The notes under the pieces: model-generated | What the model was told of the DNA's origin: nothing | Database searches by the model: none | The model's input: only the letters and a program-made list of their open reading frames with translations | Assembly: GCA_964607705.1 (NCBI GenBank) | Contig: CAZSLI010000004.1 | Location: forward strand, 15,750-79,749 | Direction: 5' to 3' | DNA length: 64,000 bases | Source of the DNA: an uncultured Eubacteriales bacterium | Lineage (GTDB): Bacteria > Actinomycetota > Coriobacteriia > Anaerosomatales > PHET01 | Shown here: positions 47,796-64,000 of the stretch, in pieces | Layout: each line of letters begins with the position of its first letter | Numbering within the stretch: position 1 is the first letter of the stretch | Program-made: the position numbers and the translations under genes

Positions 47796-50223
<2,428 letters not shown>

Positions 50224-50293
50224 CGGAAGACGCCCCTCTCGGTGATAGGCGCGCACCTGCGTCGCCTGCTGTTATCTTATCCCGCCGCAGTGA

Positions 50294-51025
50294 CTATCCG
50301 AGCACATCCACGCCGACAAGCTTGAGGTCGCCCCAGGCGGCGAGCGCGCCATCGACGCTCACGACGCAGCCGAGGACCCCGCCGATGCCGCGCGCCACAG
50401 CCAGTCCGGCCTCGAGATCGGACGCCGAGCGCACGCGGTTGCCCACGGCACTCGCGGCGGCATCGGCCAGTGCGCCGGACCGCGCGATCACGGTCGCGGC
50501 GTCCGCCCTGCCGAGCGATATCGAGGGGCCCACCGTCGCGCTCGACGTGGCCACCGCGAGCGGGAGCGAGGTGCCGCTGAGCTCTATCCCGACGCCACGA
50601 GCGCCGTTCTCGCCCGCCCAGAGCGCCACCGTCCGGTCGCGCGACCCGCACAGGTAGACGTCCCCGCCGTTCTCGACAATCACCTCGTCGCTCAACGGCC
50701 ACAGGGCACGCGCCACGTACTCGGCAACCGCACCGGCGACCGCGGCCATCGGGCCCACTCCGGCAACCTCGGCCGCCCGAGCCATCTCGACCACGACCGG
50801 CCCGGCCGATGCGTCGACCGGCACGGGCACGAATGAGTCGCCGAAACGGGGGTGCCGGACCACGTAGTCCTCGACCTGGGAGCGTGCCTCTGATGCGGCG
50901 GCGGTTGCCGGGTCGCTGAGGTCTGAACTGGCCAGGATCTGCAGGTCTGTGGTGGCGAGCACCACCTCGAATGCGCACAGGCCGGCGTCTACCGCCCGGC
51001 GATACGTTCTCGGTTGATACGCCAC
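50294..51025 (-). CDS. UPF0280 / COG2122 ApbE-like protein
   Basis: YQPRTYR, TDLQI, GPMAAVAGA, VENGGD, ATSSATVGPSISLG.ADA, ADAAA. Confidence 0.88.
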   Translation of the reverse strand: MAYQPRTYRRAVDAGLCAFEVVLATTDLQILASSDLSDPATAAASEARSQVEDYVVRHPRFGDSFVPVPVDASAGPVVVEMARAAEVAGVGPMAAVAGAVAEYVARALWPLSDEVIVENGGDVYLCGSRDRTVALWAGENGARGVGIELSGTSLPLAVATSSATVGPSISLGRADAATVIARSGALADAAASAVGNRVRSASDLEAGLAVARGIGGVLGCVVSVDGALAAWGDLKLVGVDVLG

Positions 51026-51271
51026 GTATGCCCCCGAACGCACCGGGACGCCCGCTGCATATGCACCGAGCGTCCCTGAATCAATGAAGAAGAGTCCCCT
51101 AGGGGTGACCCCCACGGACAAGATAGCCGAAACATCCAAGGATTGCCAGTCGGTCTCATGCTGTCCAGGGGCATTTCCGCACCGTCGAGCCCTGCCAATG
51201 TCTGCCGTTCCGATGGCACAGGTGGGCGAACGGGGATACCCTACAGAGGGACCACGTGGTAAGGAGCACCG

Positions 51272-52306
51272 ATGCGCGAGATCCTAGAGCTGTGCGTCGA
51301 GCTGGATCGCAAGGCGTACGACGATTACCGTGCGCTGGCTCATCTCTGCCGAGTACCCGAGTTGGCGACCATCTTCGAGCAGATGGCCACCGAGGAACGT
51401 GTCCACGTCGACTGGTGGTCTGACCTTCTCATCGCATGGGAGGGCGGGCTCGTCCCCGACATCGCCGATGAGCACAACCTCTTCGAGCGACTCAAGGAAC
51501 TGAGCACGGAAGTCGCAGCGATCTCGCCGGACGACATGCCGGACATGAGCACCGACGACATGCTCGATCTTGCCACGATGCTCGAGTTCTACATGCTGGA
51601 CCCCGTCTTCGGCGAGCTTGTGGACATCATGCAGCCCGGCAGCCGGGTGGAGGTCAGGGAGGCCTACTCCCGCCACGTGCTGCGGCTCGTAGAAGCCATC
51701 GAGCGCTTCTACACGCGGCCCGGGCTGGCGGCCTTCCTTGCGGGCGTGCTGAAGCGCGCCTATCGCGACCAGCAGCGGCTCGCCGCCCTCGCCATGCGGG
51801 ACCAGCTCACCGGCCTCTACAATCGCCGAGGACTCCTCGGGCACCTCACGCAGTGGCTGTCGTGGTCCGAGCGCTACAAGCATCCGGTCGGCGTGGCGCT
51901 CGTCGACCTCGACCACTTCAAGGCGATCAACGACACGCTCGGCCATGCGGGCGGGGACGAGGCGCTGTGCACCGTCGCCCGCATACTCAGGGAGACCGTG
52001 CGCGGCTCCGACGTCGTGGGGCGGTTCGGCGGTGACGAGTTCCTCGTGCTGGCGCCGGAGGCGGACGACGAAGTCCTCGGCCAGCTTATGGTCCGCATCG
52101 TCGAGGCCGTGGGCGACGCCCCGATCGACATCGGAGGCCGCTCAGTGACGCTGTCGGTGAGCGCCGGCGGCGCGTGGGTGCCGGGCGGAGTGGCTATCAC
52201 GCCGGAGATCCTGGTGGCGAAGGCGGACCGCTCGATGTACGAAGCGAAGTCCGAGGGCCGGAACCGTTCGAGCGCGCCTGCAAAGCTCGCCGAACCGGTC
52301 AGCTGA
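51272..52306 (+). CDS. Diguanylate cyclase with N-terminal ferritin/rubrerythrin-like domain
   Basis: D.LTGLYNRR, DLDHFKAINDTLGH.GGD, RGSD I-site, intact GGDEF; N-terminal EERVH motif. Confidence 0.88.
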   Translation: MREILELCVELDRKAYDDYRALAHLCRVPELATIFEQMATEERVHVDWWSDLLIAWEGGLVPDIADEHNLFERLKELSTEVAAISPDDMPDMSTDDMLDLATMLEFYMLDPVFGELVDIMQPGSRVEVREAYSRHVLRLVEAIERFYTRPGLAAFLAGVLKRAYRDQQRLAALAMRDQLTGLYNRRGLLGHLTQWLSWSERYKHPVGVALVDLDHFKAINDTLGHAGGDEALCTVARILRETVRGSDVVGRFGGDEFLVLAPEADDEVLGQLMVRIVEAVGDAPIDIGGRSVTLSVSAGGAWVPGGVAITPEILVAKADRSMYEAKSEGRNRSSAPAKLAEPVS

Positions 52307-53216
52307 CGTCCTCGGCGAGCTCGCCCGCGTGATAGCTCGAGCGGACGAACGGTGCGCTGGCCACGGCATCGAACCCCATCGCGTACCCATCACGCGCAAG
52401 CTGTGCAAAGACCTCGGGCTCAACAAACTCCGTGACAGGTAGGTGTCGGCTGCTCGGCCGGAGGTACTGGCCGAGGGTGAGCATCGTCACGCCATGCGCG
52501 CGCAGGTCACGCATGACCGCGCGCACCTCGTCGGGCGTCTCACCCAGACCGAGCATCAGGCCGGACTTGGTGGGCACGTCGGAGCGCCGTCGTGACACCC
52601 GGCGCAGCACCTCGAGGCTTCGCTCGTAGACGGCTTGGGGACGCACCTCGGTGTAGAGGCGCGGGACGGTCTCGACATTGTGATTGAAGACATCGGGACG
52701 CGCGTCGGCGACCAGGTCGACCGAGCCGAGATCGCCCGCAAAGTCACTGGTGAGCACCTCCACCGCAGCGTCCGGCGCCGCGGCGCGCACGGCGTTCATG
52801 ACGGCCACGAAGTGGGCGGCGCCCCCATCGGTCAGGTCGTCACGGGTGACCGACGTGATCACCACGTGACGCAGGCCCAGCCGGGCGACCGCCTCACCGA
52901 CTCGCGCGGGCTCGTTCGGGTCGAGCGGTTCGGGGCACTGGGTCTCTACCGCGCAGAACCGGCAGCCGCGTGTACAGGCGCCACCCATGATGAGGAACGT
53001 GGCTGTGCCCTCGCTGAAGCACTCGCCGCGGTTCGGGCACTTGGCAGACTGGCACACGGTGTTGAGCTTGAGCTCAGCGAGCAGCCCGTCCACCTCGGTG
53101 TAGGCGCCCGAATGGGCTATGGGCCGCCGAAGCCACGCCGGCAGTCGCTTGGTGCGCTCGGTGGTGCCGTGAGCGTACTCGGCGGGGGGCTGGTGCGATG
53201 AGGTCTCGTGAGGCAT
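52299..53216 (-). CDS. lipA: Lipoyl synthase
   Basis: VCQSAKCPNRGEC, CTRGCRFC, HNVETV, RSSYHA; extended -10 TGCTACCAT just before ATG 53216 (leaderless candidate). Confidence 0.95.
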   Translation of the reverse strand: MPHETSSHQPPAEYAHGTTERTKRLPAWLRRPIAHSGAYTEVDGLLAELKLNTVCQSAKCPNRGECFSEGTATFLIMGGACTRGCRFCAVETQCPEPLDPNEPARVGEAVARLGLRHVVITSVTRDDLTDGGAAHFVAVMNAVRAAAPDAAVEVLTSDFAGDLGSVDLVADARPDVFNHNVETVPRLYTEVRPQAVYERSLEVLRRVSRRRSDVPTKSGLMLGLGETPDEVRAVMRDLRAHGVTMLTLGQYLRPSSRHLPVTEFVEPEVFAQLARDGYAMGFDAVASAPFVRSSYHAGELAEDVS

Positions 53217-53266
53217 GCCGCGCATGGTAGCACGCCACCGCGCTTCTTCGAACGCGCGCTGAAGCG

Positions 53267-54646
53267 CTAGACCTTCCCGGCAGCGTCGAGGGCCGCGAAC
53301 TTGATGACCTCGCTGACGGTCGGGTGGCCGTGAACTGTGTGTGCGAGCTGCTTGACCGTGACTCCGTTGGCCATGCAGACGGCCACCTCATGGATGATCT
53401 CCACCGCGTGCGGCCCGACGATCTGGCAGCCGACGATGCGCCCGCTGCCCTTCTCGGCGACGATCTGCACGAACCCGTCGCTTTCGCCCTCGCCGAGGGC
53501 CTTCCCGTTCGCCGAGAACTTCGACACCGCCTGGATGGCGTCGATGCCGCGCTCCTTGGCGCCGTCCTTCGTGCGACCGACGACTGCGACCTCGGGGAAC
53601 GTGTAGACGCACGCCGGGATGCAGTCGAGGCACACGGTGTCGCTCGGCTGCTCACCCTTGAGCGCCGCGACGGCGTTGCGTGCGGCCGCGATACCCTCGT
53701 CCTCGGCCACGTGCGCGAGCATCATGCCGCCGATGAGGTCGCCGATGGCGTAGACGCCCGCAAGGTTCGTACGGAAGTACTCGTCGACCTTGAGTGCGCG
53801 GCGATCGAACTCGATGCCGGCCGCCTCGTAGCCGAAGCCCGCGGAGTTGGGCACCCGACCCACGGCGCTCATGACGATCTCGCTCTCGAGAACGGCTCCA
53901 CTTGCGAGCGTGGAGCGCATGCGCTCACCCACCCGCTCGACCGTCTGGACCGAGTCGCCGATGTGGAACTCGACCCCAAGCTCCTCGAGATGCTGCTGTG
54001 TCAGGCGGACCACGCGCTTGTCGTTGCCGGGAAGCACCTGCGGGGCGAGCTCGACGACCGTGACTTTGCTGCCGAACGCGGCGTAGGCGCAGGCGAACTC
54101 GAGGCCGATGACCCCGCCGCCGATGATGAGGATGTCCTTCGGGATGTCCTTGAGCGAAACGGCATCGTCGCTGGTCCAGACGCCGGCCATGTCGTGATCG
54201 ATGTTCGGGAGCCTGAAGACGATCGAGCCGGTTGCGAGGATGACCGCATCCGCCTCGACCGTGCGTGTGCCGCCGTCCGCGAGTGCCACCTCGACAGTCT
54301 TCTCGCCCGCGAGCTTGCCCTCGCCATAGACGACCTCGACCTTGAGGCGCTTGGCACTCGACTCCACCTGGCCCACGAGCTCGTCGACCACGCCCTCCTT
54401 GCGGGCGCGCAGACGAGCGACGTCCACCGTGGCGACCTCGACGTCGAGACCGAACTCCTCGGCGTTACGCGTGTCGGCGACGATGTGAGCCGAGCGCAGG
54501 ATGGTCTTGGTGGGGATGCAGCCCCAGTTCAGGCAGGTGCCTCCGAGCCGCTCGCGTTCGACCAGCACGACCTCGGCGCCAAGCCGGGCCGCTTCGAATG
54601 CCGCCGAGTAACCACCGGGACCGCCGCCGAGAACCGCGATACGCAT
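53267..54646 (-). CDS. lpdA: Dihydrolipoyl dehydrogenase
   Basis: GGGPGGY, GGTCLNWGCIPTK, GGGVIGLE, HGHPTVSE. Confidence 0.93.
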   Translation of the reverse strand: MRIAVLGGGPGGYSAAFEAARLGAEVVLVERERLGGTCLNWGCIPTKTILRSAHIVADTRNAEEFGLDVEVATVDVARLRARKEGVVDELVGQVESSAKRLKVEVVYGEGKLAGEKTVEVALADGGTRTVEADAVILATGSIVFRLPNIDHDMAGVWTSDDAVSLKDIPKDILIIGGGVIGLEFACAYAAFGSKVTVVELAPQVLPGNDKRVVRLTQQHLEELGVEFHIGDSVQTVERVGERMRSTLASGAVLESEIVMSAVGRVPNSAGFGYEAAGIEFDRRALKVDEYFRTNLAGVYAIGDLIGGMMLAHVAEDEGIAAARNAVAALKGEQPSDTVCLDCIPACVYTFPEVAVVGRTKDGAKERGIDAIQAVSKFSANGKALGEGESDGFVQIVAEKGSGRIVGCQIVGPHAVEIIHEVAVCMANGVTVKQLAHTVHGHPTVSEVIKFAALDAAGKV

Positions 54647-54785
54647 AAGGAGACCCTCCGAACTCACCCTATGGGCAGATAGTCCGGAGATTCTAGCATG
54701 CCGAGGAATCACATCGGGTGCTGAGCGGAACCTTCCCGGCGCGTCATCGCGGGCGATCGTCTCCGCCGAACCGCCCCTAGCCCGG

Positions 54786-55658
54786 CTAGGCGAGATCGGC
54801 GCCCTCGAGGATCACGCGCACCGCGTCATCGGAGCCAAGCGGCATGATGTGGACCCCATCGGCCATCGCCTTGAGTTCGCGCACCTGCTCGGTGGCGAGC
54901 GCGATCGACTCGGCGAGCGGGTCGGCGGCTCCCTTGATGCGGGACTCGATCGCTTCCGGCACCATGAGACCCGCAAGCTTGCTGTTGATGAAGTCGATCA
55001 CCCGTCCGCTCTTGAACAGCAGGACGCCGGCGATGAGCTTCACGCCGTAGGGCTCCAGCGCCTCTGCCGCGCGCGCGAACTTGGCCACGTCGGTCACGGC
55101 CTGAGTCTGGAAGAACCGCGCGCCGGCCTCTATCTTCTGCACCGTGCGCTCCAGCTGGATGTCGAAGGGCTCCGCTTCAGGGAACGCTGCGGCGCCGAGA
55201 AGGAAGTCGGTCGCCCCGGTGAGCGCAGAGCCGTTCATGTCCGCCCCGTCGTTCAGGCCCCGCGCGACGCCCAAGAGCTGCGTCGAGTCGAGGTCGAACA
55301 CGCCCTTGGCCTCCGGGTGATCGCCGCCGCGGGGATCGTCGCCCGTCACGATCAGCACGTTCTCGAGGCCCAGCGTCCACGCGGCGAGCAGATCGCTTTG
55401 CAGCGCAAGGCGGTTCCGGTCCCGGCAGGTCTGCTGGAATATGGGCTCGAATCCGGCGTCCAGCACCGCGCGAGACGCAGCGAGCGAACTCAGGTGCAGA
55501 GTCGCTCCCTGATTGTCAGTGACGTTGAGCGCGTGACAGTAGGGTCCCAGCCGCTCGACGCTCGCGAGCATCGCCGAGTAGTCGGTCCCGTGGGGCGGCG
55601 CTACCTCGCCGGTGACGACGAACTCACCGCGCTCGAGCGCATCGCGCAGACGGCTCAT
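54786..55658 (-). CDS. metF: Methylenetetrahydrofolate reductase MetF subunit
   Basis: VTGEVAPP, NVTDNQ, CRDRNRLALQSDL, TGD, KIEAGARFFQTQ. Confidence 0.93.
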   Translation of the reverse strand: MSRLRDALERGEFVVTGEVAPPHGTDYSAMLASVERLGPYCHALNVTDNQGATLHLSSLAASRAVLDAGFEPIFQQTCRDRNRLALQSDLLAAWTLGLENVLIVTGDDPRGGDHPEAKGVFDLDSTQLLGVARGLNDGADMNGSALTGATDFLLGAAAFPEAEPFDIQLERTVQKIEAGARFFQTQAVTDVAKFARAAEALEPYGVKLIAGVLLFKSGRVIDFINSKLAGLMVPEAIESRIKGAADPLAESIALATEQVRELKAMADGVHIMPLGSDDAVRVILEGADLA

Positions 55659-56326
55659 CGGCTGTCGCCCTCTCCGCGCTGCTCGCGCATGTTGACGCTG
55701 CCCGGCTTGAGCTTCACGGCATAGTTCTTCGGCGGGACGCTCTTGGCGGCGGTCCTTCCCTGCTCGGCGAGGCGCCGGCGGATACGGACGTGAGTGCACT
55801 CGCGGTCGGCGAGCACCTCGCACTTGCCGTTCCACATGCCACCGCACGGCCCGTTGAGCAGGCCTTTCGGGCAGGTCGTGACCGGGCAGATGCCGGCAGT
55901 CAGGTCGAGAACGCAGTCGCCGCAGGTTTGGCAACGCTCTTCGAAGACGCCGTGGCGGACCACCGTGCCGAGGAAGGCGCTGTCGAGTGCGGGAAACACC
56001 GGCTTCTTCACCGCATCCGCCACCGTCTGCACTCCTGCGCCGCACGTGAGCACCAGGAGTGCGTCAGCGCGGTCGATGTCACCGGAGTTCTTGCGCGTGT
56101 CCAGCCGCGTGCCGCCCTGATGGCAGGCGACCTCGCCTATCGCCCAGCCCGTGACCTCGAAGCCCTCGGCCTCGAGGCGCGCCTTGGACGTCATGATCGC
56201 CTTTTCGCCGCCGGTACCGGCGACGGTGGCACACTGGCCGCAGCCCATGAGGAAGACACGCTTCGCGCCGATCTCCTCGAGATTGCGGCGGATGCGGTTC
56301 CAGTCGCGTGGCTTGGTGATGATCAC
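55655..56326 (-). CDS. metV: MetV (Fe-S/FMN subunit of MTHFR)
   Basis: GCGQCAT, CGAGVQ, ERCQTCGDC, CP.T.CPKGLLNGPCGG...CE; coupled to metF. Confidence 0.88.
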   Translation of the reverse strand: MIITKPRDWNRIRRNLEEIGAKRVFLMGCGQCATVAGTGGEKAIMTSKARLEAEGFEVTGWAIGEVACHQGGTRLDTRKNSGDIDRADALLVLTCGAGVQTVADAVKKPVFPALDSAFLGTVVRHGVFEERCQTCGDCVLDLTAGICPVTTCPKGLLNGPCGGMWNGKCEVLADRECTHVRIRRRLAEQGRTAAKSVPPKNYAVKLKPGSVNMREQRGEGDSR

Positions 56327-56406
56327 GTTCGGCCTCCTCGGCACTCGCTCAGGCGCATGCGCGTGAGAGTCCCGACACGATAGCGCGTGCCCCGTACCGC
56401 GGCAAA

Positions 56407-57531
56407 CTAACCGAGCTGCTCGGCCAGCACCTCGGCGATGCGAGTGGCGGCGGTCCCGTCGCCGAACGGGTTGGCTGCGTGCGCCATCGCTGCATATTCC
56501 TCGGCATCATCGAGCAGCAGGGACGCCTCAGCGAAGACCCGCTCCTCGTCCGTACCCACGAGCCGCACGGTGCCGGCCGCCACCGCCTCGGGTCGCTCGG
56601 TGCAATCACGCATGACCAACACCGGGACGCCGAGCGAGGGCGCCTCCTCCTGCATGCCGCCGGAGTCCGACAGGATGAGCGTGGACGCCTTCATCAGGTT
56701 GACGAACGGCACGTAGTCGAGCGGAGCCAGCAGGTCGACGCGGTCCACACCGCCGAGGACCTCGCGCGCGATCTCCTGCACCTCCGGGTTGAGATGCACC
56801 GAGAAGAGCACATGGACGTCGGGATGCGTCTCCACCAGGCGCTTCGCGGCGCGGCACACGCACCCGATGGGGTCGCCCCAGTTCTCGCGACGATGGCTCG
56901 TCATGAGGACGATGCGCCTTCCGCTCTCGATCGCCGAGCGCACCGGGCCTTCGGGAAACTCGTACGGCATCTCGAGGACCTCGAACAGCGCGTCGACAAC
57001 GGTGTTGCCGGTCATCCACACCTTCGCAGGGTCGACGCCGTCGCGCAGCAAGCGCGACTCGGCGACGCCGGTCGGCGGGAAGTGCCACGTCGCGATCTGC
57101 GTGGCCAGGCGCCGGTTCATCTCCTCGGGAAAGGGTGCATAGACGTCATCTGTGCGCAGGCCGGCCTCGACGTGCCCAACCGGGATCTTGCGATAGAAGG
57201 CGGCGAGCGCCGTGACGAAAGTCGTCGTGGTATCGCCCTGCACGAGCACCGCATCAGGCTTGAGCTCGTCGAGCGCCGGCCCCACGCGCTCCAGCACGCG
57301 GCTCGTGAGGCCGTCGAGCGTCTGCCGAGGAAGCATGACCGCCAGGTCGATGTCGGCCTGGATATCGAAGACTCTCAGCACCTGGTCGAGCATCTCGCGA
57401 TGCTGGCCGGTGACGAGCACCTGCACGTCGAAGCCGCCGTGGCGGCGCAGCGCGTGAACCACGGGCGCCATCTTGATGGCCTCAGGCCGCGTTCCGAACG
57501 CGACGGCGATGGTCTTGCGGGTCATCGGCAT
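56407..57531 (-). CDS. wecB: UDP-N-acetylglucosamine 2-epimerase (non-hydrolysing)
   Basis: FGTRPEAIKMAP, TGQHREM, QGDT, HVEAGLR, PEEMNR, DSGGMQEE, NPFGDG. Confidence 0.95.
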   Translation of the reverse strand: MPMTRKTIAVAFGTRPEAIKMAPVVHALRRHGGFDVQVLVTGQHREMLDQVLRVFDIQADIDLAVMLPRQTLDGLTSRVLERVGPALDELKPDAVLVQGDTTTTFVTALAAFYRKIPVGHVEAGLRTDDVYAPFPEEMNRRLATQIATWHFPPTGVAESRLLRDGVDPAKVWMTGNTVVDALFEVLEMPYEFPEGPVRSAIESGRRIVLMTSHRRENWGDPIGCVCRAAKRLVETHPDVHVLFSVHLNPEVQEIAREVLGGVDRVDLLAPLDYVPFVNLMKASTLILSDSGGMQEEAPSLGVPVLVMRDCTERPEAVAAGTVRLVGTDEERVFAEASLLLDDAEEYAAMAHAANPFGDGTAATRIAEVLAEQLG

Positions 57532-57596
57532 ACCTCCGCGGCAAGGCTACCCTAGCCGAGCAGCCCAGCGCCAGAGCCGCCGAGTGCATCGCCTCG

Positions 57597-60032
57597 CTAG
57601 GAGATGGCTCCCCGCACCGCCTCTACGCAGCCAAGGGCGTCCGCCGAGTACCCCGCCCCGACCTGCTCGGCCCACTCGCGCGTCACCACCGCCCCGCCGA
57701 CGAACAGCGCCACGTCCGGCTGAGCGGCGCGCACCGCGTCAAGCGTGTCGCGCATGGCGGGCAGCGTCGTCGTCATGAGTGCCGAGAGGCAGACGGCCCG
57801 CACGTCGGCGGCAGCCTCGACCACCCGCTCGACGGGAACGTCCACCCCGAGGTCGACGACCTCGATGCCCTGGCTCTCGAGCATCGAGACGCAGATGTCC
57901 TTCCCGATCGAGTGGATGTCTCCCTTGACCGTCGCGAACGCCACGGACGGGCCTGCCGAGAGACCCTCCCCTTCGGGAAGCAGTTCCTTCACGCGAGCGA
58001 CAGCGGCCTTCATGGCCTCGGCCGCGACCATCATCTGCGGCAGGAAGACCTCGCCGCGCCCGTACGCATCGCCGAGCCGCTGGATAGCGGGCGTCAGCAC
58101 ATCGCCGATGACCGACTCGGGCGCCGTGCCACTCTCGACGACCGCATCGACCAGCGTCGGTGCGCTGTCGGCGTCGCCGCGAAGCATCGCGGTCACGAGC
58201 GCTTCTCGGGGATCCGCAGCCTCGGCTGTCGCACCCTCGGCCACTTGTGCCTCGACCCCTCCAGCGGCCTGCTCCATCGCCGACGCGTACGCCGCCTCCC
58301 ACGCGTCCCACGCCTGCACGTGGGCGTCGGGGTCGACCCCGGCCTCACGCGCCTGATTCACGAGCCGGACGGCCTCCATGACCACGTGATCGTTGGGGTT
58401 CACGATCGCCGAGGACAACCCGTAGGCGGCCGCCACCGACAGGAACGCTGCGTTGAGCAGCGGACGGCTCGGCAGCCCGTGGCTGACATTGGAGACGCCG
58501 AGGGTGGTGGCGAGACCCACGGAACTCGCCGCGCTCATCGCCCCGAGCGTCACGCCGGGCGCGTCCTCGTCGGTGGCCGCGGTCATGACGAGCGCGTCCA
58601 CCACAAGATCGCGTGCCGGAATGCCGTGCTGCTCGGCGGCCGACTGCACGCGATCGACGATCGCCGCGCGCCCCTCGGGCCTGCCGGGGATGCCGTCGTC
58701 ATCGAGCGCAAGCACGACCAGTGCGGCGCCGTAGCGCGCCGCGAGCGGCAGCACCGACTCCATCGATGCAACTTCGCCGTTGACGCTGTTGATGAGCGCC
58801 TTGCCGGGATAGACCCGCAGCGCCGCTTCGAGCGCAGCCGGGTCGGTTGTGTCGAGCACGAGGGGCAGGTCGGTAGAGCCGACCAGCGCGAGCACGGCCT
58901 GCGGAAGGACCGCCGGGGCGTCCACTCCGGCAGCACCGACGTTCACGTCAAGCAGGTCCGCTCCCGCATCCTCCTGCTCGGCGGCATACGAGCGCACCAC
59001 GCTCATCGAGCCGGCGAGCAGCGACTCCTTCAGCTTGGGCTTGCCCGTCGGGTTGATGCGCTCGCCGATCACCCGCAACGGCTGTCCCGGGCCGATCTCA
59101 ACGACTCGCCGAGGACCTGCGAGCACCGTGCCTTCGTGGCCCCGGGAGCCGATGTCCACCACGTCGCGGTCAGCGACGGCATCCACGATCGCTCCCGTGT
59201 GGGCCGGCGACGATCCGCAGCAGGATCCCACTGCGGCCACACCTGCGACACGCACCTGTTCTGCGAAGGCACCCATCTCGTCGGCGGTGCCAGGGAAGAC
59301 CGTGTTCCCGGCGTCATCGAGGGTAGGCAGACCTGCGTTCGGCTGCGCGATGACGGGTAGCCTGGTAGCCCTCACCATGCGGGCGGCGAGCGGCAACATC
59401 TGGTCGGGCCCAAGCCCGCAGTTGAGGCCGACGGCGTCGGCGCCCGCCGCCTCAAGTATCACGGCCGCCGCCTCAGGCGACGTCCCGGACAGGTCCATGA
59501 CGCCTGCGAGCCCGAAGGTACAGCTCGCAAATACCGGCAGGTCACATACGCTCTTGGCGGCGAGCACGGCGCAGCGGGCTTCAGCGATGTCGGTCATCGT
59601 CTCGATGAAGATCGCGTCCGGCTTCTCGGCGGCCAGTGCCGCGGCCTGCTCGGCGAAGGCGGCGAAGACTTCCTCGAACGTGGCAGGTCCGAGCGGTTGC
59701 ATGACGAGCCCCGTCGGGCCCATGTCCGCGAGCACGTGAGGGGGCCCGTAGCGCTTGGCGATCTTCACCGCGGCGCGGTTGAACTCATCGACCCGGTCCG
59801 CGTAGCCATACTCGGCGAGCTTGGGCGCCGACCCGCCGAACGTGTTCGTAATGGTGCAGTCGCTCCCAGCGAGCTGGTAGAGCCGAAGCACCTGTCCCAC
59901 CATGTCGGGCGCGGTGATGTTGAGCAGCTCAGGGCACTCGCCCGCCGGAAGGCCGGCGCGCTGGAGCATCGTTCCCATAGCGCCGTCCAGCACGAGCATC
60001 TCGCGGCCGAGCCGCATCATGATATCGGGCAT
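57597..60032 (-). CDS. metH: Cobalamin-dependent methionine synthase (Hcy-binding, pterin-binding, B12-binding domains; no reactivation domain)
   Basis: LDGAMGTML, GLNC, GSCCG, IGERINPTGK, GDIHSIGKDI, SALMTTT. Confidence 0.92.
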   Translation of the reverse strand: MPDIMMRLGREMLVLDGAMGTMLQRAGLPAGECPELLNITAPDMVGQVLRLYQLAGSDCTITNTFGGSAPKLAEYGYADRVDEFNRAAVKIAKRYGPPHVLADMGPTGLVMQPLGPATFEEVFAAFAEQAAALAAEKPDAIFIETMTDIAEARCAVLAAKSVCDLPVFASCTFGLAGVMDLSGTSPEAAAVILEAAGADAVGLNCGLGPDQMLPLAARMVRATRLPVIAQPNAGLPTLDDAGNTVFPGTADEMGAFAEQVRVAGVAAVGSCCGSSPAHTGAIVDAVADRDVVDIGSRGHEGTVLAGPRRVVEIGPGQPLRVIGERINPTGKPKLKESLLAGSMSVVRSYAAEQEDAGADLLDVNVGAAGVDAPAVLPQAVLALVGSTDLPLVLDTTDPAALEAALRVYPGKALINSVNGEVASMESVLPLAARYGAALVVLALDDDGIPGRPEGRAAIVDRVQSAAEQHGIPARDLVVDALVMTAATDEDAPGVTLGAMSAASSVGLATTLGVSNVSHGLPSRPLLNAAFLSVAAAYGLSSAIVNPNDHVVMEAVRLVNQAREAGVDPDAHVQAWDAWEAAYASAMEQAAGGVEAQVAEGATAEAADPREALVTAMLRGDADSAPTLVDAVVESGTAPESVIGDVLTPAIQRLGDAYGRGEVFLPQMMVAAEAMKAAVARVKELLPEGEGLSAGPSVAFATVKGDIHSIGKDICVSMLESQGIEVVDLGVDVPVERVVEAAADVRAVCLSALMTTTLPAMRDTLDAVRAAQPDVALFVGGAVVTREWAEQVGAGYSADALGCVEAVRGAIS

Positions 60033-60039
60033 GCCGTCC

Positions 60040-60375
60040 CTACTCCTCGACCTTGCTGTTCGCGTATGCCACAGCCATGAACCACAGCGAGCCGACGCAC
60101 ATCAACGCCAGCACGATCATCTCCGTCAGCGGACCGGGACCGTACGCCCTGAGAAACCCGGCCAGCTGCCCTGAGGCCGCCGCCCAGGCGAGGTCGAGTG
60201 CGGCCAGGCCCAGAAACGAGTACGCCACGACCGAGTTGTAGCGCATGGCTGCGGCTTTACCCCTCCTGGCGCCGACTACGTACACAAGTCCGAATCCCAC
60301 GCTGGCCGCCATCGTGATCACGAACCCGACGGGCACGAACGTGAAGACCCACATCTGGTTGTATCCGAAATACAC
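60040..60375 (-). CDS. Small membrane protein (about 3 TM)
   Basis: Hydrophobic 111-aa ORF tightly packed within the operon. Confidence 0.65.
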   Translation of the reverse strand: MYFGYNQMWVFTFVPVGFVITMAASVGFGLVYVVGARRGKAAAMRYNSVVAYSFLGLAALDLAWAAASGQLAGFLRAYGPGPLTEMIVLALMCVGSLWFMAVAYANSKVEE

Positions 60376-60390
60376 GCGAGGCTCCGTACG

Positions 60391-60792
60391 TTAGAACGAA
60401 AGACTGACGGCCCGCCGAGGACACGCGATGACGCACGCCTCGCAGTAGACGCACTTGTCCTTGTCGAACACGAGCGCTTCCCCACTCAGGGTCAGCGCTC
60501 CCGACCGGCAGACAGCCGTGCACAGACCACACGTCACGCAGCGATCCTCATCGAGCTTGATGTCGCTGGCGGCCTCGCGGACCTGAAGACCCTGTGATGC
60601 CAGGAACGCCATGGCGTCCGAGAGTGCGTCCTTGCGGCCGGTGACCTCCACAAGCATGCGGCCCTCCTGACCCGGCTGAATCTGTGCGCGAAGGATATTC
60701 GGCACGATGTCGTAGTCCTTCACCAGGTGATAGACCACGGGCTTCAGCGACTGCCGAGGCGGGAACGTGAGATCGAGGCGCTTCTTCGCCAT
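60391..60792 (-). CDS. NIL domain + 2x[4Fe-4S] ferredoxin (MA1822-like)
   Basis: KPVVYHLVKDY...NILRAQI, CVTCGLCTAVC, CVYCEACVIACP. Confidence 0.92.
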   Translation of the reverse strand: MAKKRLDLTFPPRQSLKPVVYHLVKDYDIVPNILRAQIQPGQEGRMLVEVTGRKDALSDAMAFLASQGLQVREAASDIKLDEDRCVTCGLCTAVCRSGALTLSGEALVFDKDKCVYCEACVIACPRRAVSLSF

Positions 60793-61962
60793 CTAGATCG
60801 CCTCCCCGGCGCGGACCTCGAGGGGCTTGGTGCTCTGGGACCCCGGCGGTGGCAGCAGCTCGACCGGCCGCGCGATCGTCCACCCACCGCGTATCCAGGA
60901 CTTGAGCTCCTCGGCGATAGCGCGCGCCTTCTTCAAGGAGCTGATCGGTCCGGTGGGCACCTTGCGGCCCTCGATCTCTATCTCGCCGCTGCGCAGCTGG
61001 GCGTAGGTGACCCGCCCCATGCTCGGGCGGCTTCGACGCTGAACGCCATAGTCGAACACGGTCGCCGAGATCTGCTCGTCGCTCAAAGCCAGCGTGAGCG
61101 CGATGTCCTCATCGAGTACCGGGATGGGGACGCCGATGCCCATGAAGCACGACACCCCGTACTTGGTCATCGTGGCCGCCGAGTAGTACGCCGGCGATGC
61201 CTGCTTCAGATCCGCGATGACTGCGAGGGTGCCCGAAGGGCCCACCGGTACGCCGTGCTCATCGCGCGTCTGATTGGGATTGTGCTGGGTGCCCTGCCAT
61301 GACACGTAGCCGGGCGCACCGGCGACGAAGCACCGGGTGCCGATGCCGATCGTCCGGTACTCCGGGTCATTGAGCAGCGGCGAAAGCGCGCCCGCCGAGC
61401 AGTAGGTCGCGTTGCCGAGCCTCGGCAACAGCGGGCCAAGGTAGGTGTAGAGGGTCTGGTCGGTCGAGTTCACCGCGACCGCGTAGTTCTGATACGCGTT
61501 GCGAGGGTTGAAGAAATACGCCTGATTGAGGTCATCAAGTGTGACCCAGGTATCTATCTCGGTGCGCGGATAGCAATCAGTGCCCGGCCCCGTGGCCTTG
61601 AGCCGTACGGCGTGGCCCCTGAGCAGGTCCTCGATAACATGGGCACCGCCGTACTCGATACCCCGCGTGAGCGAAGGCTCGGTGGCCCCCAAGTAGGTAT
61701 CGACGGCGGCGAGCCCGCCACTGGCGGGAACGTCGTTGAGGGTGATCGCACCCATCTTGATGGGAGGATCCGAATGTCCGAAGTTCAGAAAGGCGCCGCT
61801 CGAGCACATCGGCCCGAACGTTCCAGTGGTGACCACATCGACCTTGCGGGCGGCCTTCTTGAGACCCTCGTCGGAGGCCAGCGCACCGAACTCCTCGGCG
61901 GTCATCACGACCGCTTCACCGGAAGCGATGCGCTCGTTGATCTCGTCCCAGCTCTTGGCCAT
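60793..61962 (-). CDS. Homocysteine biosynthesis protein / aspartate semialdehyde sulfurtransferase (DUF39, MA1821-like, no CBS domains)
   Basis: EINERI..G.AVV.TAEE, VDVVTTGTFGPMCSSGA, NPRNAYQNY, TLYTYLG, LLNDP.YRTIGIGTR, WQGTQH. Confidence 0.92.
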   Translation of the reverse strand: MAKSWDEINERIASGEAVVMTAEEFGALASDEGLKKAARKVDVVTTGTFGPMCSSGAFLNFGHSDPPIKMGAITLNDVPASGGLAAVDTYLGATEPSLTRGIEYGGAHVIEDLLRGHAVRLKATGPGTDCYPRTEIDTWVTLDDLNQAYFFNPRNAYQNYAVAVNSTDQTLYTYLGPLLPRLGNATYCSAGALSPLLNDPEYRTIGIGTRCFVAGAPGYVSWQGTQHNPNQTRDEHGVPVGPSGTLAVIADLKQASPAYYSAATMTKYGVSCFMGIGVPIPVLDEDIALTLALSDEQISATVFDYGVQRRSRPSMGRVTYAQLRSGEIEIEGRKVPTGPISSLKKARAIAEELKSWIRGGWTIARPVELLPPPGSQSTKPLEVRAGEAI

Positions 61963-62056
61963 GACAGCCGCCCCCTCATGCGACGAAGGGCGCCCGCCTC
62001 GGCCTCGTCACCGAGTGGCGCGCCCTCGAAATGCCGGAATACGCACCGGCGGGCGA

Positions 62057-62086
62057 ATGATACCGACTGACTTGCAGCCGGGTCAA
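62057..62086 (-). promoter_or_regulatory. Sigma70-type promoter for the DUF39 operon
   Basis: TTGACC, 18-nt spacer, TATCAT immediately after the Rrf2 stop. Confidence 0.6.
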
Positions 62087-62089
62087 AAC

Positions 62090-62530
62090 TCAGCGTGAGG
62101 CCCCATTCAGCGCCTCGGGGACGCCGCCCTCGGCCACGCAGTCGGCAAGCGTCATGGTTGCGAGCTCGCGCTCGATCATGGCGTCTATGCGCTTCCACAC
62201 GCCGTTGTGAACGGGGCAGTCATCCGTGCGCCGACACGCGTGTTCGTCGTAGGTGCACAGCGACATCGTGGGCTTCTCGTCCATCGCGACGAAGACGTCG
62301 AGCAATGAGATCTCATCGGCCGCCCTGGCGAGCGCGAAGCCTCCCTGGGAGCCACGCCGAGAGACCAGGAGACCGGAGCGAGCGAGCTTGTTGGCGATCT
62401 GGCGGGCGAAATCGTAGGGAACGTCAGCAGACTCGGAGAGGACGGCGATACTGCAGCGGGCGTCGGGCCCGAGCCTGGTCAGCTCGTAGGCGATGCGTAT
62501 CGCATAGTCCGTACGCCAGGCGATCGGCAT
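62090..62530 (-). CDS. Rrf2 family transcriptional regulator with three Cys
   Basis: TDYAIR, L..SGLL.S.RG..GGF.LAR, ISLLDV; C-x6-C-x5-C (LCTYDEHACRRTDDCPVH). Confidence 0.9.
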   Translation of the reverse strand: MPIAWRTDYAIRIAYELTRLGPDARCSIAVLSESADVPYDFARQIANKLARSGLLVSRRGSQGGFALARAADEISLLDVFVAMDEKPTMSLCTYDEHACRRTDDCPVHNGVWKRIDAMIERELATMTLADCVAEGGVPEALNGASR

Positions 62531-62644
62531 GGTCTGGCCCCTTCTTCTGCCCGTCGGCGAACCACGGTGCCTTTTGCGAGAAAGACAATGCTACGAAGCA
62601 GTGCCTTTTCGTACCCTATTTCGTTGTAAGAAACTGCCGACGAG

Positions 62645-63088
62645 TCAGATGCAACCCAAGCGCCAGAGCGCTGCCGCGACAACCTCGTGATGATCGAAGG
62701 CCAGGGTCTCGGGCAAGTCGTCAGCGAAGAACCATCGGGCCTCGGCGCTGTCGTCGCCCGGCACGACGTAGGGCTCCTCCAAGCCGAGATCCGCGAGATA
62801 GGCCGCGCTGACCGTCCAGCCCCTGGGATCGCGTCCCGGGTCGGCGAACGTCCCCACTGGCACCAGCGGCCCTTCCCAGATCAGGCCCGTCTCCTCGGCC
62901 AGCTCCCGGCGCGCTGCGGCTACAGGCCGCTCGCCCTCATCGACGAATCCGCCCGGCAGCGCCCAGCAGTCCTTGAAGGGATCTGCCGCCCGCTTCACCA
63001 GCAACACCTTCCGCGCTTCAACGGGGCCGCTGAAGACCACAGTGTCGCAACAGAATGCGGGCCGAGGATATGCGTAGGTGTAGTCCAT
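62645..63088 (-). CDS. NUDIX hydrolase
   Basis: WALPGGFVDEGE...AARRELAEETGL, DPGRDPRG, LAFDH. Confidence 0.92.
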   Translation of the reverse strand: MDYTYAYPRPAFCCDTVVFSGPVEARKVLLVKRAADPFKDCWALPGGFVDEGERPVAAARRELAEETGLIWEGPLVPVGTFADPGRDPRGWTVSAAYLADLGLEEPYVVPGDDSAEARWFFADDLPETLAFDHHEVVAAALWRLGCI

Positions 63089-63176
63089 ATCTCCAGTGTA
63101 GCGAATCTGACGTGGAGCGGCAGGGCTCGGCTACACTCGCACCCGTCGTCGGAGATGCACATCTAAGGGGCAGGAC

Positions 63177-64000
63177 TTGTCGCAACGCGCCAAAGTGATA
63201 CTGGCGATGCTCACCATGTACGTCGTCTGGGGAACCACCTACCTCGGCATCAAGGTGGGCGTCGACTCGGGGCTCCCGCCTGCCCTCTTCGCAGGTCTTC
63301 GCCTGTTGCCGGCTGCAGCGATCATGTTCGTGATCGCTCGCATGCGAGGTCTGTCGTTGCGCGTCGACCGTTACGAGTTCAGAGTCGTCACCATCGTCGG
63401 CCTGCTTCTTCTGGTCGGCGGCCAGTACGGGATGATGGTCGCCGAGCAGTACGTGCCTTCGGGGATCGCCGCGCTGGTCGTCGCTTTGAATCCCCTATGG
63501 ATCGCGCTTGTCGAGTCGGCGTTCCCGGACATGCAGCGGCCGGGCAAGCTGGGGTGGATCGGGTTGGCTCTCGGCTTCTCCGGCCTCGGCATCCTTCTGT
63601 GGCCGCGGGTGGCCGACGTGCAGACGGGGCCGGCAGAGCTTCTCGGCATCTCGATCGTCGTGCTCGGCACGTGGCTTTGGACTGCGGGATCGATCTACAG
63701 CAAGCGCCACCCGCTGCGCACCGACGGCATCGTCGTGTCGGCGTACGAGATGCTCGCCGCAGGCCTTGTCACCATCGTCTTGGGTACGGTGACAGGTGAG
63801 TGGCAGAGCTTCGTCATGACGCCCAAGGGCGCGGCCGCCTTGGCCTACCTGATCGTCTTCGGGAGCTGCATCGCATTCAGTGCGTTCGTCTACGCGCTGG
63901 CGCATCTGCCCGCAAGCAAGGTCATGACCTACGCATACGTGAACCCGGTCATCGCGGTGTTCGCCGGCTGGGCCGCCGGCCGCCTGGGGCTGGTGCCGCC
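63177..64000 (+). CDS. EamA/DMT family transporter (3' end truncated by window edge)
   Basis: Manual translation from TTG 63177: YVVWGTTYLGIK, AEQYVPSGIAAL, YLIVFGSCIAF, TYAYVNPVIAV; open to the edge. Confidence 0.9.
   Translation, partial: MSQRAKVILAMLTMYVVWGTTYLGIKVGVDSGLPPALFAGLRLLPAAAIMFVIARMRGLSLRVDRYEFRVVTIVGLLLLVGGQYGMMVAEQYVPSGIAALVVALNPLWIALVESAFPDMQRPGKLGWIGLALGFSGLGILLWPRVADVQTGPAELLGISIVVLGTWLWTAGSIYSKRHPLRTDGIVVSAYEMLAAGLVTIVLGTVTGEWQSFVMTPKGAAALAYLIVFGSCIAFSAFVYALAHLPASKVMTYAYVNPVIAVFAGWAAGRLGLVP

Follow-up and report, generated by a model that had tools for sequence, protein, structure and literature searches.

Gene content and host of the cluster

A set of sulfur and methionine genes lies at positions 50294–62530 of a 64,000-nt stretch of DNA (hereafter the window; GenBank assembly GCA_964607705.1, contig CAZSLI010000004.1, positions 15,750 to 79,749), which sits on contig C4 of a metagenome-assembled genome (MAG) of 2.32 Mb in 52 contigs that is 96% complete. 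The original prediction, made from the sequence alone, had described it as a methanogen-type set for sulfide assimilation, wired to methionine synthesis. Read along the minus strand, the set begins with an Rrf2-family regulator of 146 aa (62090–62530; PF02082, 103.7 bits), followed by a 389-aa DUF39/HcyBio protein of the COG1900a type, assigned as a subunit of L-aspartate-semialdehyde sulfurtransferase (60793–61962; PF01837, 489.3 bits), and by a 133-aa subunit that carries a NIL domain and a 2x[4Fe-4S] ferredoxin (60391–60792; PF09383, 61.2 bits, plus Fer4 families). Then come a small hydrophobic, helical membrane protein of 111 aa from an unnamed family (60040–60375), a short cobalamin-dependent MetH of 811 aa (57597–60032; S-methyl_trans, Pterin_bind, B12-binding_2 and B12-binding), the UDP-GlcNAc 2-epimerase WecB (56407–57531; TIGR00236, 477 bits), the small subunit MetV of a MetVF-type methylene-tetrahydrofolate (THF) reductase (55655–56344; PF12225, 103.6 bits) and its 290-aa catalytic subunit MetF (54786–55658; PF02219, 112.6 bits). 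The last member, a COG2122/UPF0280 (ApbE-like) gene with a GTG start, is found at 50294–51025. All the genes that had been named were recovered at or near their predicted positions, in the one orientation, and agreed with their profile matches.

The host is an anaerobic, Anaerosomatales-like (OPB41) Coriobacteriia bacterium. The G+C content was 64–71% across the cluster region, and the closest DUF39 loci (74–83% identity) came from MAGs labelled Coriobacteriia, Anaerosomatales or Actinomycetota. The window also contains a DUF2469 gene adjoining ligA; DUF2469 is presumably an actinobacterial family. Three comparison sets were used: 41 genomes of the order for gene content, 39 DUF39-bearing loci from Coriobacteriia species, and 80 DUF39 homologues or loci overall.

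A probable route of sulfide-dependent homocysteine formation and methionine synthesis

The cluster was interpreted, with a probability of about 0.85, as the known sulfide-dependent homocysteine route (DUF39, NIL-ferredoxin and COG2122) joined to methionine synthesis. The interpretation rests on what was observed in the sequence and in its comparison with relatives: the identities of the genes, catalytic residues that are conserved, synteny and co-loss. The gene order DUF39, NIL-ferredoxin, (small open reading frame, ORF), metH, metV, metF was kept in 32 of the 39 Coriobacteriia loci, namely those long enough to show it. In the window the start codon of the NIL-ferredoxin gene abuts the DUF39 stop, and the metF ATG at 55658 overlaps the metV stop, such that the two genes share 4 nt. 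Judging by published work on these families, DUF39 and the NIL/2x[4Fe-4S] ferredoxin would act together as L-ASST, an L-aspartate-semialdehyde sulfurtransferase, forming homocysteine from aspartate semialdehyde and sulfide, while COG2122, encoded in its own unit 9.8 kb downstream of the NIL-ferredoxin gene, would assist sulfur delivery. MetVF would reduce methylene-THF to methyl-THF, and the short B12-dependent MetH, probably reactivated by a RamA/RACo-like protein encoded elsewhere, would methylate homocysteine. The claim that a complete route from aspartate semialdehyde and sulfide through homocysteine to methionine is encoded, with its own supply of methyl-THF, was upheld, with DUF39, NIL-ferredoxin, COG2122, MetH and MetVF in the window and Asd elsewhere in the genome.

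The PF01837 match covered profile positions 1–345 of 349 and scored above the gathering threshold. Five residues of the DUF39 protein (C53, C130, H63, H108 and H227) were invariant or nearly so among the 80 homologues, H108 being kept in 97% and both cysteines in all. By their numbering and 77-residue spacing, rather than by direct alignment, C53 and C130 would correspond to Cys54 and Cys131 of MA1821 from Methanosarcina acetivorans. The MA1821-22 enzyme has been named L-aspartate-semialdehyde sulfurtransferase, and its Cys54 is essential while Cys131 is not (PMC12068725). The ferredoxin subunit combines the NIL domain with two CX2CX2CX3C motifs, all eight cluster cysteines of which were invariant in 76 homologues, and in 76 of 80 related loci its gene came behind DUF39. 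DUF39 was found in two or three pieces in two genomes of the order, G030 (C6:182992-184037) and G035 (C5:120925-121919), the former also without MetX; these may be pseudogenes or assembly indels.

Comparison with the M. acetivorans system, MA1821 (DUF39-CBS), MA1822 (NIL-ferredoxin) and MA1715 (COG2122), revealed the same two-subunit design, with an invariant cysteine pair at matching positions and a partner bearing a NIL domain and two [4Fe-4S] motifs. In both genomes COG2122 is encoded, and the route stands beside an O-acetylhomoserine sulfhydrylase route. The window differs in its bacterial host (Actinomycetota), in the joining of the genes to metH and metVF in an operon, and in the DUF39 protein itself, which has no C-terminal CBS pair such as that of MA1821 and MJ0100. 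As the original prediction had stated, the domain search found HcyBio as the sole domain (residues 17–360). In MA1821-22 the NIL domain was assigned methionine binding and the CBS pair S-adenosylmethionine (SAM) binding (PMC12068725), so that the proposed allosteric input of SAM would be missing here. A 405-aa homologue from a MAG labelled Methanosarcinales (L086) likewise has no CBS domains, and the pair is therefore not defining for the family.

The label "methanogen-type" falls short: besides Methanosarcina, where its evidence is genetic, the route has already been demonstrated in Desulfovibrio (PMC5764234), and it is widespread in anaerobic bacteria. In Desulfovibrio vulgaris, DUF39, NIL/ferredoxin and COG2122 were each shown genetically to be required for homocysteine (PMC5764234). 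Strain Miyazaki F has the same bacterial gene set (DvMF_1464, DUF39; DvMF_0262, NIL/ferredoxin; DvMF_0044, COG2122) and a short MetH without reactivation domain (DvMF_0476) along with a RamA-like protein (PMC5764234), and the host genome resembles it in these respects. However, the locus numbers of that strain are widely separated and it has no classical routes, whereas the window has DUF39, NIL-ferredoxin, metH and metVF in one contiguous run, and its genome encodes MetX/MetY as well.

The COG2122 protein scored 267 bits against NCBIfam PRK04334.1-3, just under the cut-off of 271, and matched PDB entry 2o34 over its full length (E 2e-41). Its inclusion in the route was supported by co-loss with DUF39 in relatives. 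Both genes were present in 21 of the 41 genomes, neither in 17, and the two were discordant in 3, so that they were kept or lost together in 38. Homologues also occur directly behind DUF39–NIL-ferredoxin in nine loci from Clostridia/Bacillota. Genome G010 has clean gaps at both sites: DUF39 and NIL-ferredoxin have dropped out from between the NUDIX gene and the small ORF/metH, and COG2122 from between DUF2469 and GGDEF, while the flanking genes remain. That this one genome underwent both deletions separately speaks for a functional link between DUF39 and COG2122. In G009, COG2122 is missing in the same clean manner and DUF39 is absent genome-wide.

Two features upstream of COG2122 were also recorded. 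A leader hairpin (51045–51076) is conserved, with changes in its arms, only in loci L012 and L013. A 67-aa ORF on the plus strand (51084–51287) begins with ATGAAGAAGA, and this stretch is conserved upstream of COG2122 in the same two loci; it could represent a small divergent gene, or else no more than a conserved leader.

The classical route of homocysteine synthesis, for which a check of metA, metX, metY and metB had been proposed, is encoded in the host genome, and the sulfide route is thus redundant rather than the sole one. A metY-metX operon lies on contig C2 (TIGR01326, 650 bits; MetX, NF001209, 491 bits), another metY-like gene on C3 and a cystathionine gamma-synthase/lyase-like gene on C14. 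Across the 41 genomes, 16 carried DUF39 together with MetX, 6 DUF39 only, 18 MetX only, and a single genome (82% complete) neither, a distribution that fits two alternative, interchangeable routes to homocysteine. Asd and cysK are encoded in the host genome and no NIR_SIR sulfite reductase was found there, which fits an anaerobe living on reduced sulfur.

Neither MetE nor the reactivation domain PF02965 was found in the host genome, while two RACo/RamA-like (DUF4445) genes occur away from the cluster. In published fitness data, a MetH without reactivation domain was cofit with a RamA-like DUF4445 protein (PMC5764234). By analogy, one of the two proteins probably reactivates the short MetH of the window. 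The metV gene lay behind metH in all relatives that have the operon, with a gap of about 20–135 nt in the seven inspected. The genes gcvH and gcvP are found on contig C1, giving LpdA and LipA, encoded next to metF, a plausible role in the supply of methylene-THF. LpdA is possibly the L-protein of the glycine cleavage system, which would be its link to the methionine genes.

Several points weigh against the assignment of the whole cluster to this route. The MetX-MetY operon could supply all homocysteine, in which case the DUF39 route may be conditional or even idle. The COG2122 score stays below its NCBIfam cut-off, the co-loss counts, taken from genomes that are related, do not represent independent events, and the equivalence of the cysteine pair to that of MA1821 was drawn from position. 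Finally, no terminators were predicted in the cluster.

The T-box leader and the Rrf2-family regulator

The pathway itself has been described before and the locus is an ordinary new example of it, unusual only in the loss of a tRNA-sensing switch that relatives have kept. Among the 39 related loci, 34 had GGTGGTACCGCG (ACG in two) 72–115 nt before DUF39, and 26 of these 34 also had GGAACATGG about 41 nt past AGAGA. Full-length T-box leaders were detected by cmscan at L029:9646-9954 (60.5 bits, E ~1e-12) and L013:9619-9936 (59.2 bits). Scores of about 60 bits fall below the Rfam gathering score of 93, and standard annotation would miss these leaders. The specifier, taken as the triplet before a purine and CCCC, reads AUG, the methionine codon, in the T-boxes of the relatives. 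The same rule applied to the three full T-boxes of the host genome gave Trp (TGG; C7:73208-73476), Leu (CTG; C33:5649-5952) and Ile (ATC; C1:139872-140126); a fourth hit was a partial match. Hence none of the three that were read was specific for methionine, and there was no T-box on contig C4. No riboswitch or T-box was detected before DUF39, either at Rfam gathering scores over the whole window or at E <= 1 between 59900 and 62800. Like the Met-specific T-box leaders of methionine genes in Firmicutes (RF00230), those that precede DUF39 in the relatives are full-length and have AUG as specifier; the window has none. The operon of most relatives is thus predicted to be switched by a tRNA-Met T-box, and the host genome has lost that leader.

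What remains between Rrf2 and DUF39 is a spacer of 127 nt. It contains a sigma-70-like promoter match, TTGACC-18-TATCAT (62057–62086, minus strand), the only such match in 50000–63300, where shuffled sequences average 1.0. Its position fits a DUF39 promoter, a putative assignment based on consensus match only. Just before the DUF39 ribosome-binding site lies a hairpin with 16-nt arms and an 8-nt loop (61987–62026, minus strand), with a fold z-score of only -1.7. The spacer was considered as a decayed T-box terminator and this was rejected: local alignments to the 3' ends of the T-boxes of six relatives were no better than shuffles, bar one unrelated 14-nt match. The DUF39 and COG2122 leader hairpins have CTCGGTG...GCGGGCG in common, a pattern found nine times in the genome. 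About 0.05 such collinear 7-mer pairs would be expected by chance, and the motif was picked post hoc; the significance of this likeness is doubtful.

The Rrf2 protein had been described as having three cysteines. It has five, but three of them (C92, C99 and C105) are, together with H108, invariant in eight orthologues (54–64% identity). This ligand set is IscR-like, and binding of an Fe-S cluster is predicted. The protein shares the winged-helix Rrf2 fold with IscR, RsrR and CymR, and its Cys-x6-Cys-x5-Cys-x2-His spacing resembles the cluster ligands of IscR; CymR is a precedent for control of sulfur amino-acid genes by an Rrf2 protein. In contrast to these three, it reached no named NCBIfam subfamily or equivalog cut-off, and its matches to members of solved structure were weak (best E 8e-10).

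A search of the 41 genomes found the Rrf2 gene at the head of the met operon in six, the window's included, with or without DUF39. In G006 and G008 it lies between NUDIX and the met operon and is followed by a T-box. In G013, G007 and G016, which have neither DUF39 nor a T-box, it occupies the same place with spacers of about 15–110 nt to the next gene. Since Rrf2 was kept where DUF39 had been lost, its association is with the methionine operon and not with DUF39 as such. Throughout the order the operon has a NUDIX gene (62645–63088, minus strand, in the window) as its conserved neighbour on the upstream side; that of G016 stops about 30 nt before Rrf2, with which it may be co-transcribed there.

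Control of the operon by an Fe-S Rrf2 protein, originally proposed as possible, is thus still hypothetical, and the usual switch in this order is the Met T-box that is absent here. It is conceivable, if somewhat doubtful, that the Rrf2 gene 127 nt upstream has taken over direct control of the operon. At about even odds, Rrf2 is instead a mere neighbour that regulates itself, the NUDIX gene or distant Fe-S genes, the operon being constitutive or under another factor acting from the promoter-like site in the spacer. This is favored by the position of the sigma-70-like site behind the Rrf2 stop and by the occurrence of orthologues of 56% identity at other loci in G029 and G010. It is also favored by loci L013 and L065, which have both Rrf2 and a full T-box, so that Rrf2 is not needed for switching there. 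Two further results support the same view and count against Rrf2 control: the aligned upstream regions of the eight orthologues held no conserved palindrome, and five relatives without a T-box are also without Rrf2. On the other hand, Rrf2 has retained its position and orientation directly ahead of the met operon in six genomes, even after deletion of DUF39, and the spacer measures 15 to about 130 nt unless a T-box lies between. Moreover, clusters of cysK-like (PALP), DUF39 and NIL-ferredoxin genes begin with a 3-Cys Rrf2 gene at seven loci from other phyla, with an extra gene in two. These seven loci (L074, L077, L083, L085, L087, L089 and L073) come from MAGs labelled Omnitrophota, Thermodesulfobacteriota, Planctomycetales or bacterium, and L087 includes a Thi4 gene.

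A broader form of Rrf2 control, in which a 3-Cys/1-His Rrf2 took the place of an ancestral tRNA-Met T-box in switching L-ASST, MetH and MetVF in one Anaerosomatales family and the small membrane protein works together with MetH or in sulfide uptake, was considered unlikely.

Alternative roles, neighboring genes and implications

The T-box of the relatives also bears on two other accounts of the cluster. Genes of the Wood-Ljungdahl pathway have been reported in some OPB41 MAGs (PMC9686372), and metV-metF-lpdA might be a relic or a part of its methyl branch, as in acetogen clusters, rather than a dedicated methyl supply for MetH. This is improbable, and a Wood-Ljungdahl role of metVF was rejected: AcsB/CdhC was not found in the 96%-complete genome, which argues that MetVF does not serve acetogenesis. 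In addition, metV keeps close to metH in the seven relatives inspected, a Met T-box precedes the operon in most, and a glycine cleavage system that would need LpdA and LipA is encoded on C1. It is also improbable that DUF39 and NIL-ferredoxin produce some other thiol than homocysteine, as the coenzyme M synthase MMP16 would suggest by analogy, leaving all homocysteine to MetX/MetY; the full MetX-MetY operon and the ability of COG1900 enzymes to act on other aldehydes (PMC12068725) allow for this, but the MMP16 model (TIGR03287, COG1900d) scored 125 bits against a cut-off of 364, in relatives the pair opens, as first cistron, an operon that includes metH and is preceded by a Met-specific T-box, six relatives have DUF39 yet no MetX, and the NIL domain has been linked to methionine binding (PMC12068725).

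Two genes of the cluster remain. The 111-aa membrane protein had no match in Pfam or NCBIfam, and its best ESM Atlas score of 0.88 was under the useful range. About half of the relatives encode, at the corresponding position, hydrophobic proteins of 108–136 aa to which it aligns without internal gaps, and its gene remains with metH where DUF39 has been deleted. A profile search yielded 64 matches, including one from Anaerosoma tenue; all those with a named source were "hypothetical" proteins of Coriobacteriia or actinobacterial MAGs. Its AlphaFold model was all helical (pLDDT 91.5), and Foldseek found no match to this fold in PDB (best E 1.1). The small ORF is thus a real gene, of an unnamed family restricted to Anaerosomatales.

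The wecB gene occurred in none of the 39 DUF39-bearing related loci. Orthologues of 72–76% identity precede metV-metF in four members of the family without DUF39 (G009, G010, G019 and G017). In G009 (L098), G010 (L099:6400-12100) and G019 (L100), an insertion of 5.5–8 kb separates metH from metV and has wecB as its last gene; that of G010, the one inspected, carries genes for a glycosyltransferase of GT2 type and a surface protein of CARDB/PPC type. As judged from this synteny, wecB is a passenger from a glycan island, an unrelated insertion of which the window retains wecB alone, and its proposed part in the methionine wiring was rejected. The wecB-metV spacer (56345–56406) and the metH-metV spacer of L040 have TTTGCCGCG...TATCGTG in common. 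This could be an internal metVF promoter, although it scores below the scan threshold (8/12).

The gene list of the original prediction was right, but it left unmentioned three genes between metF and COG2122: the dihydrolipoyl dehydrogenase gene lpdA (53267–54712, minus strand; TIGR01350, 479.5 bits), the lipoyl synthase gene lipA (52299–53225, minus strand; TIGR00510, 378.7 bits) and a GGDEF diguanylate cyclase gene on the opposite strand (51272–52306, plus strand), convergent with lipA. They place COG2122 3.8 kb beyond metF and make it a separate transcription unit; the cluster probably holds several such units. In relatives, lpdA-lipA usually come after metF and then, in loci that extend far enough, GGDEF-COG2122-DUF2469-ligA. 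The genes that intervene between metF and lpdA in other relatives, encoding a metallophosphoesterase and a MoaE-like protein, were judged unrelated. The GGDEF protein has an N-terminal rubrerythrin-like stretch (PF02915, E 1e-4), and its gene is kept between lipA and COG2122 in relatives.

With these results the DUF39 homocysteine route takes in Coriobacteriia of the OPB41/Anaerosomatales lineage, which was first described without mention of methionine metabolism (PMC9686372), and COG2122 gains comparative support as part of that route. The points of interest are modest: redundancy with MetX/MetY, co-loss of COG2122, loss of the T-box beside an Rrf2 gene that is conserved, and a small membrane protein of an unnamed family. 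Automated calls of MetX/MetY as "present" or "absent" do not settle the source of homocysteine in such subsurface anaerobes. Regulator turnover at one operon, with a T-box, Rrf2 or neither, and the small membrane protein offer testable but modest leads. If Rrf2 did replace the T-box, methionine synthesis would follow Fe-S, sulfide or redox status and not tRNA charging.

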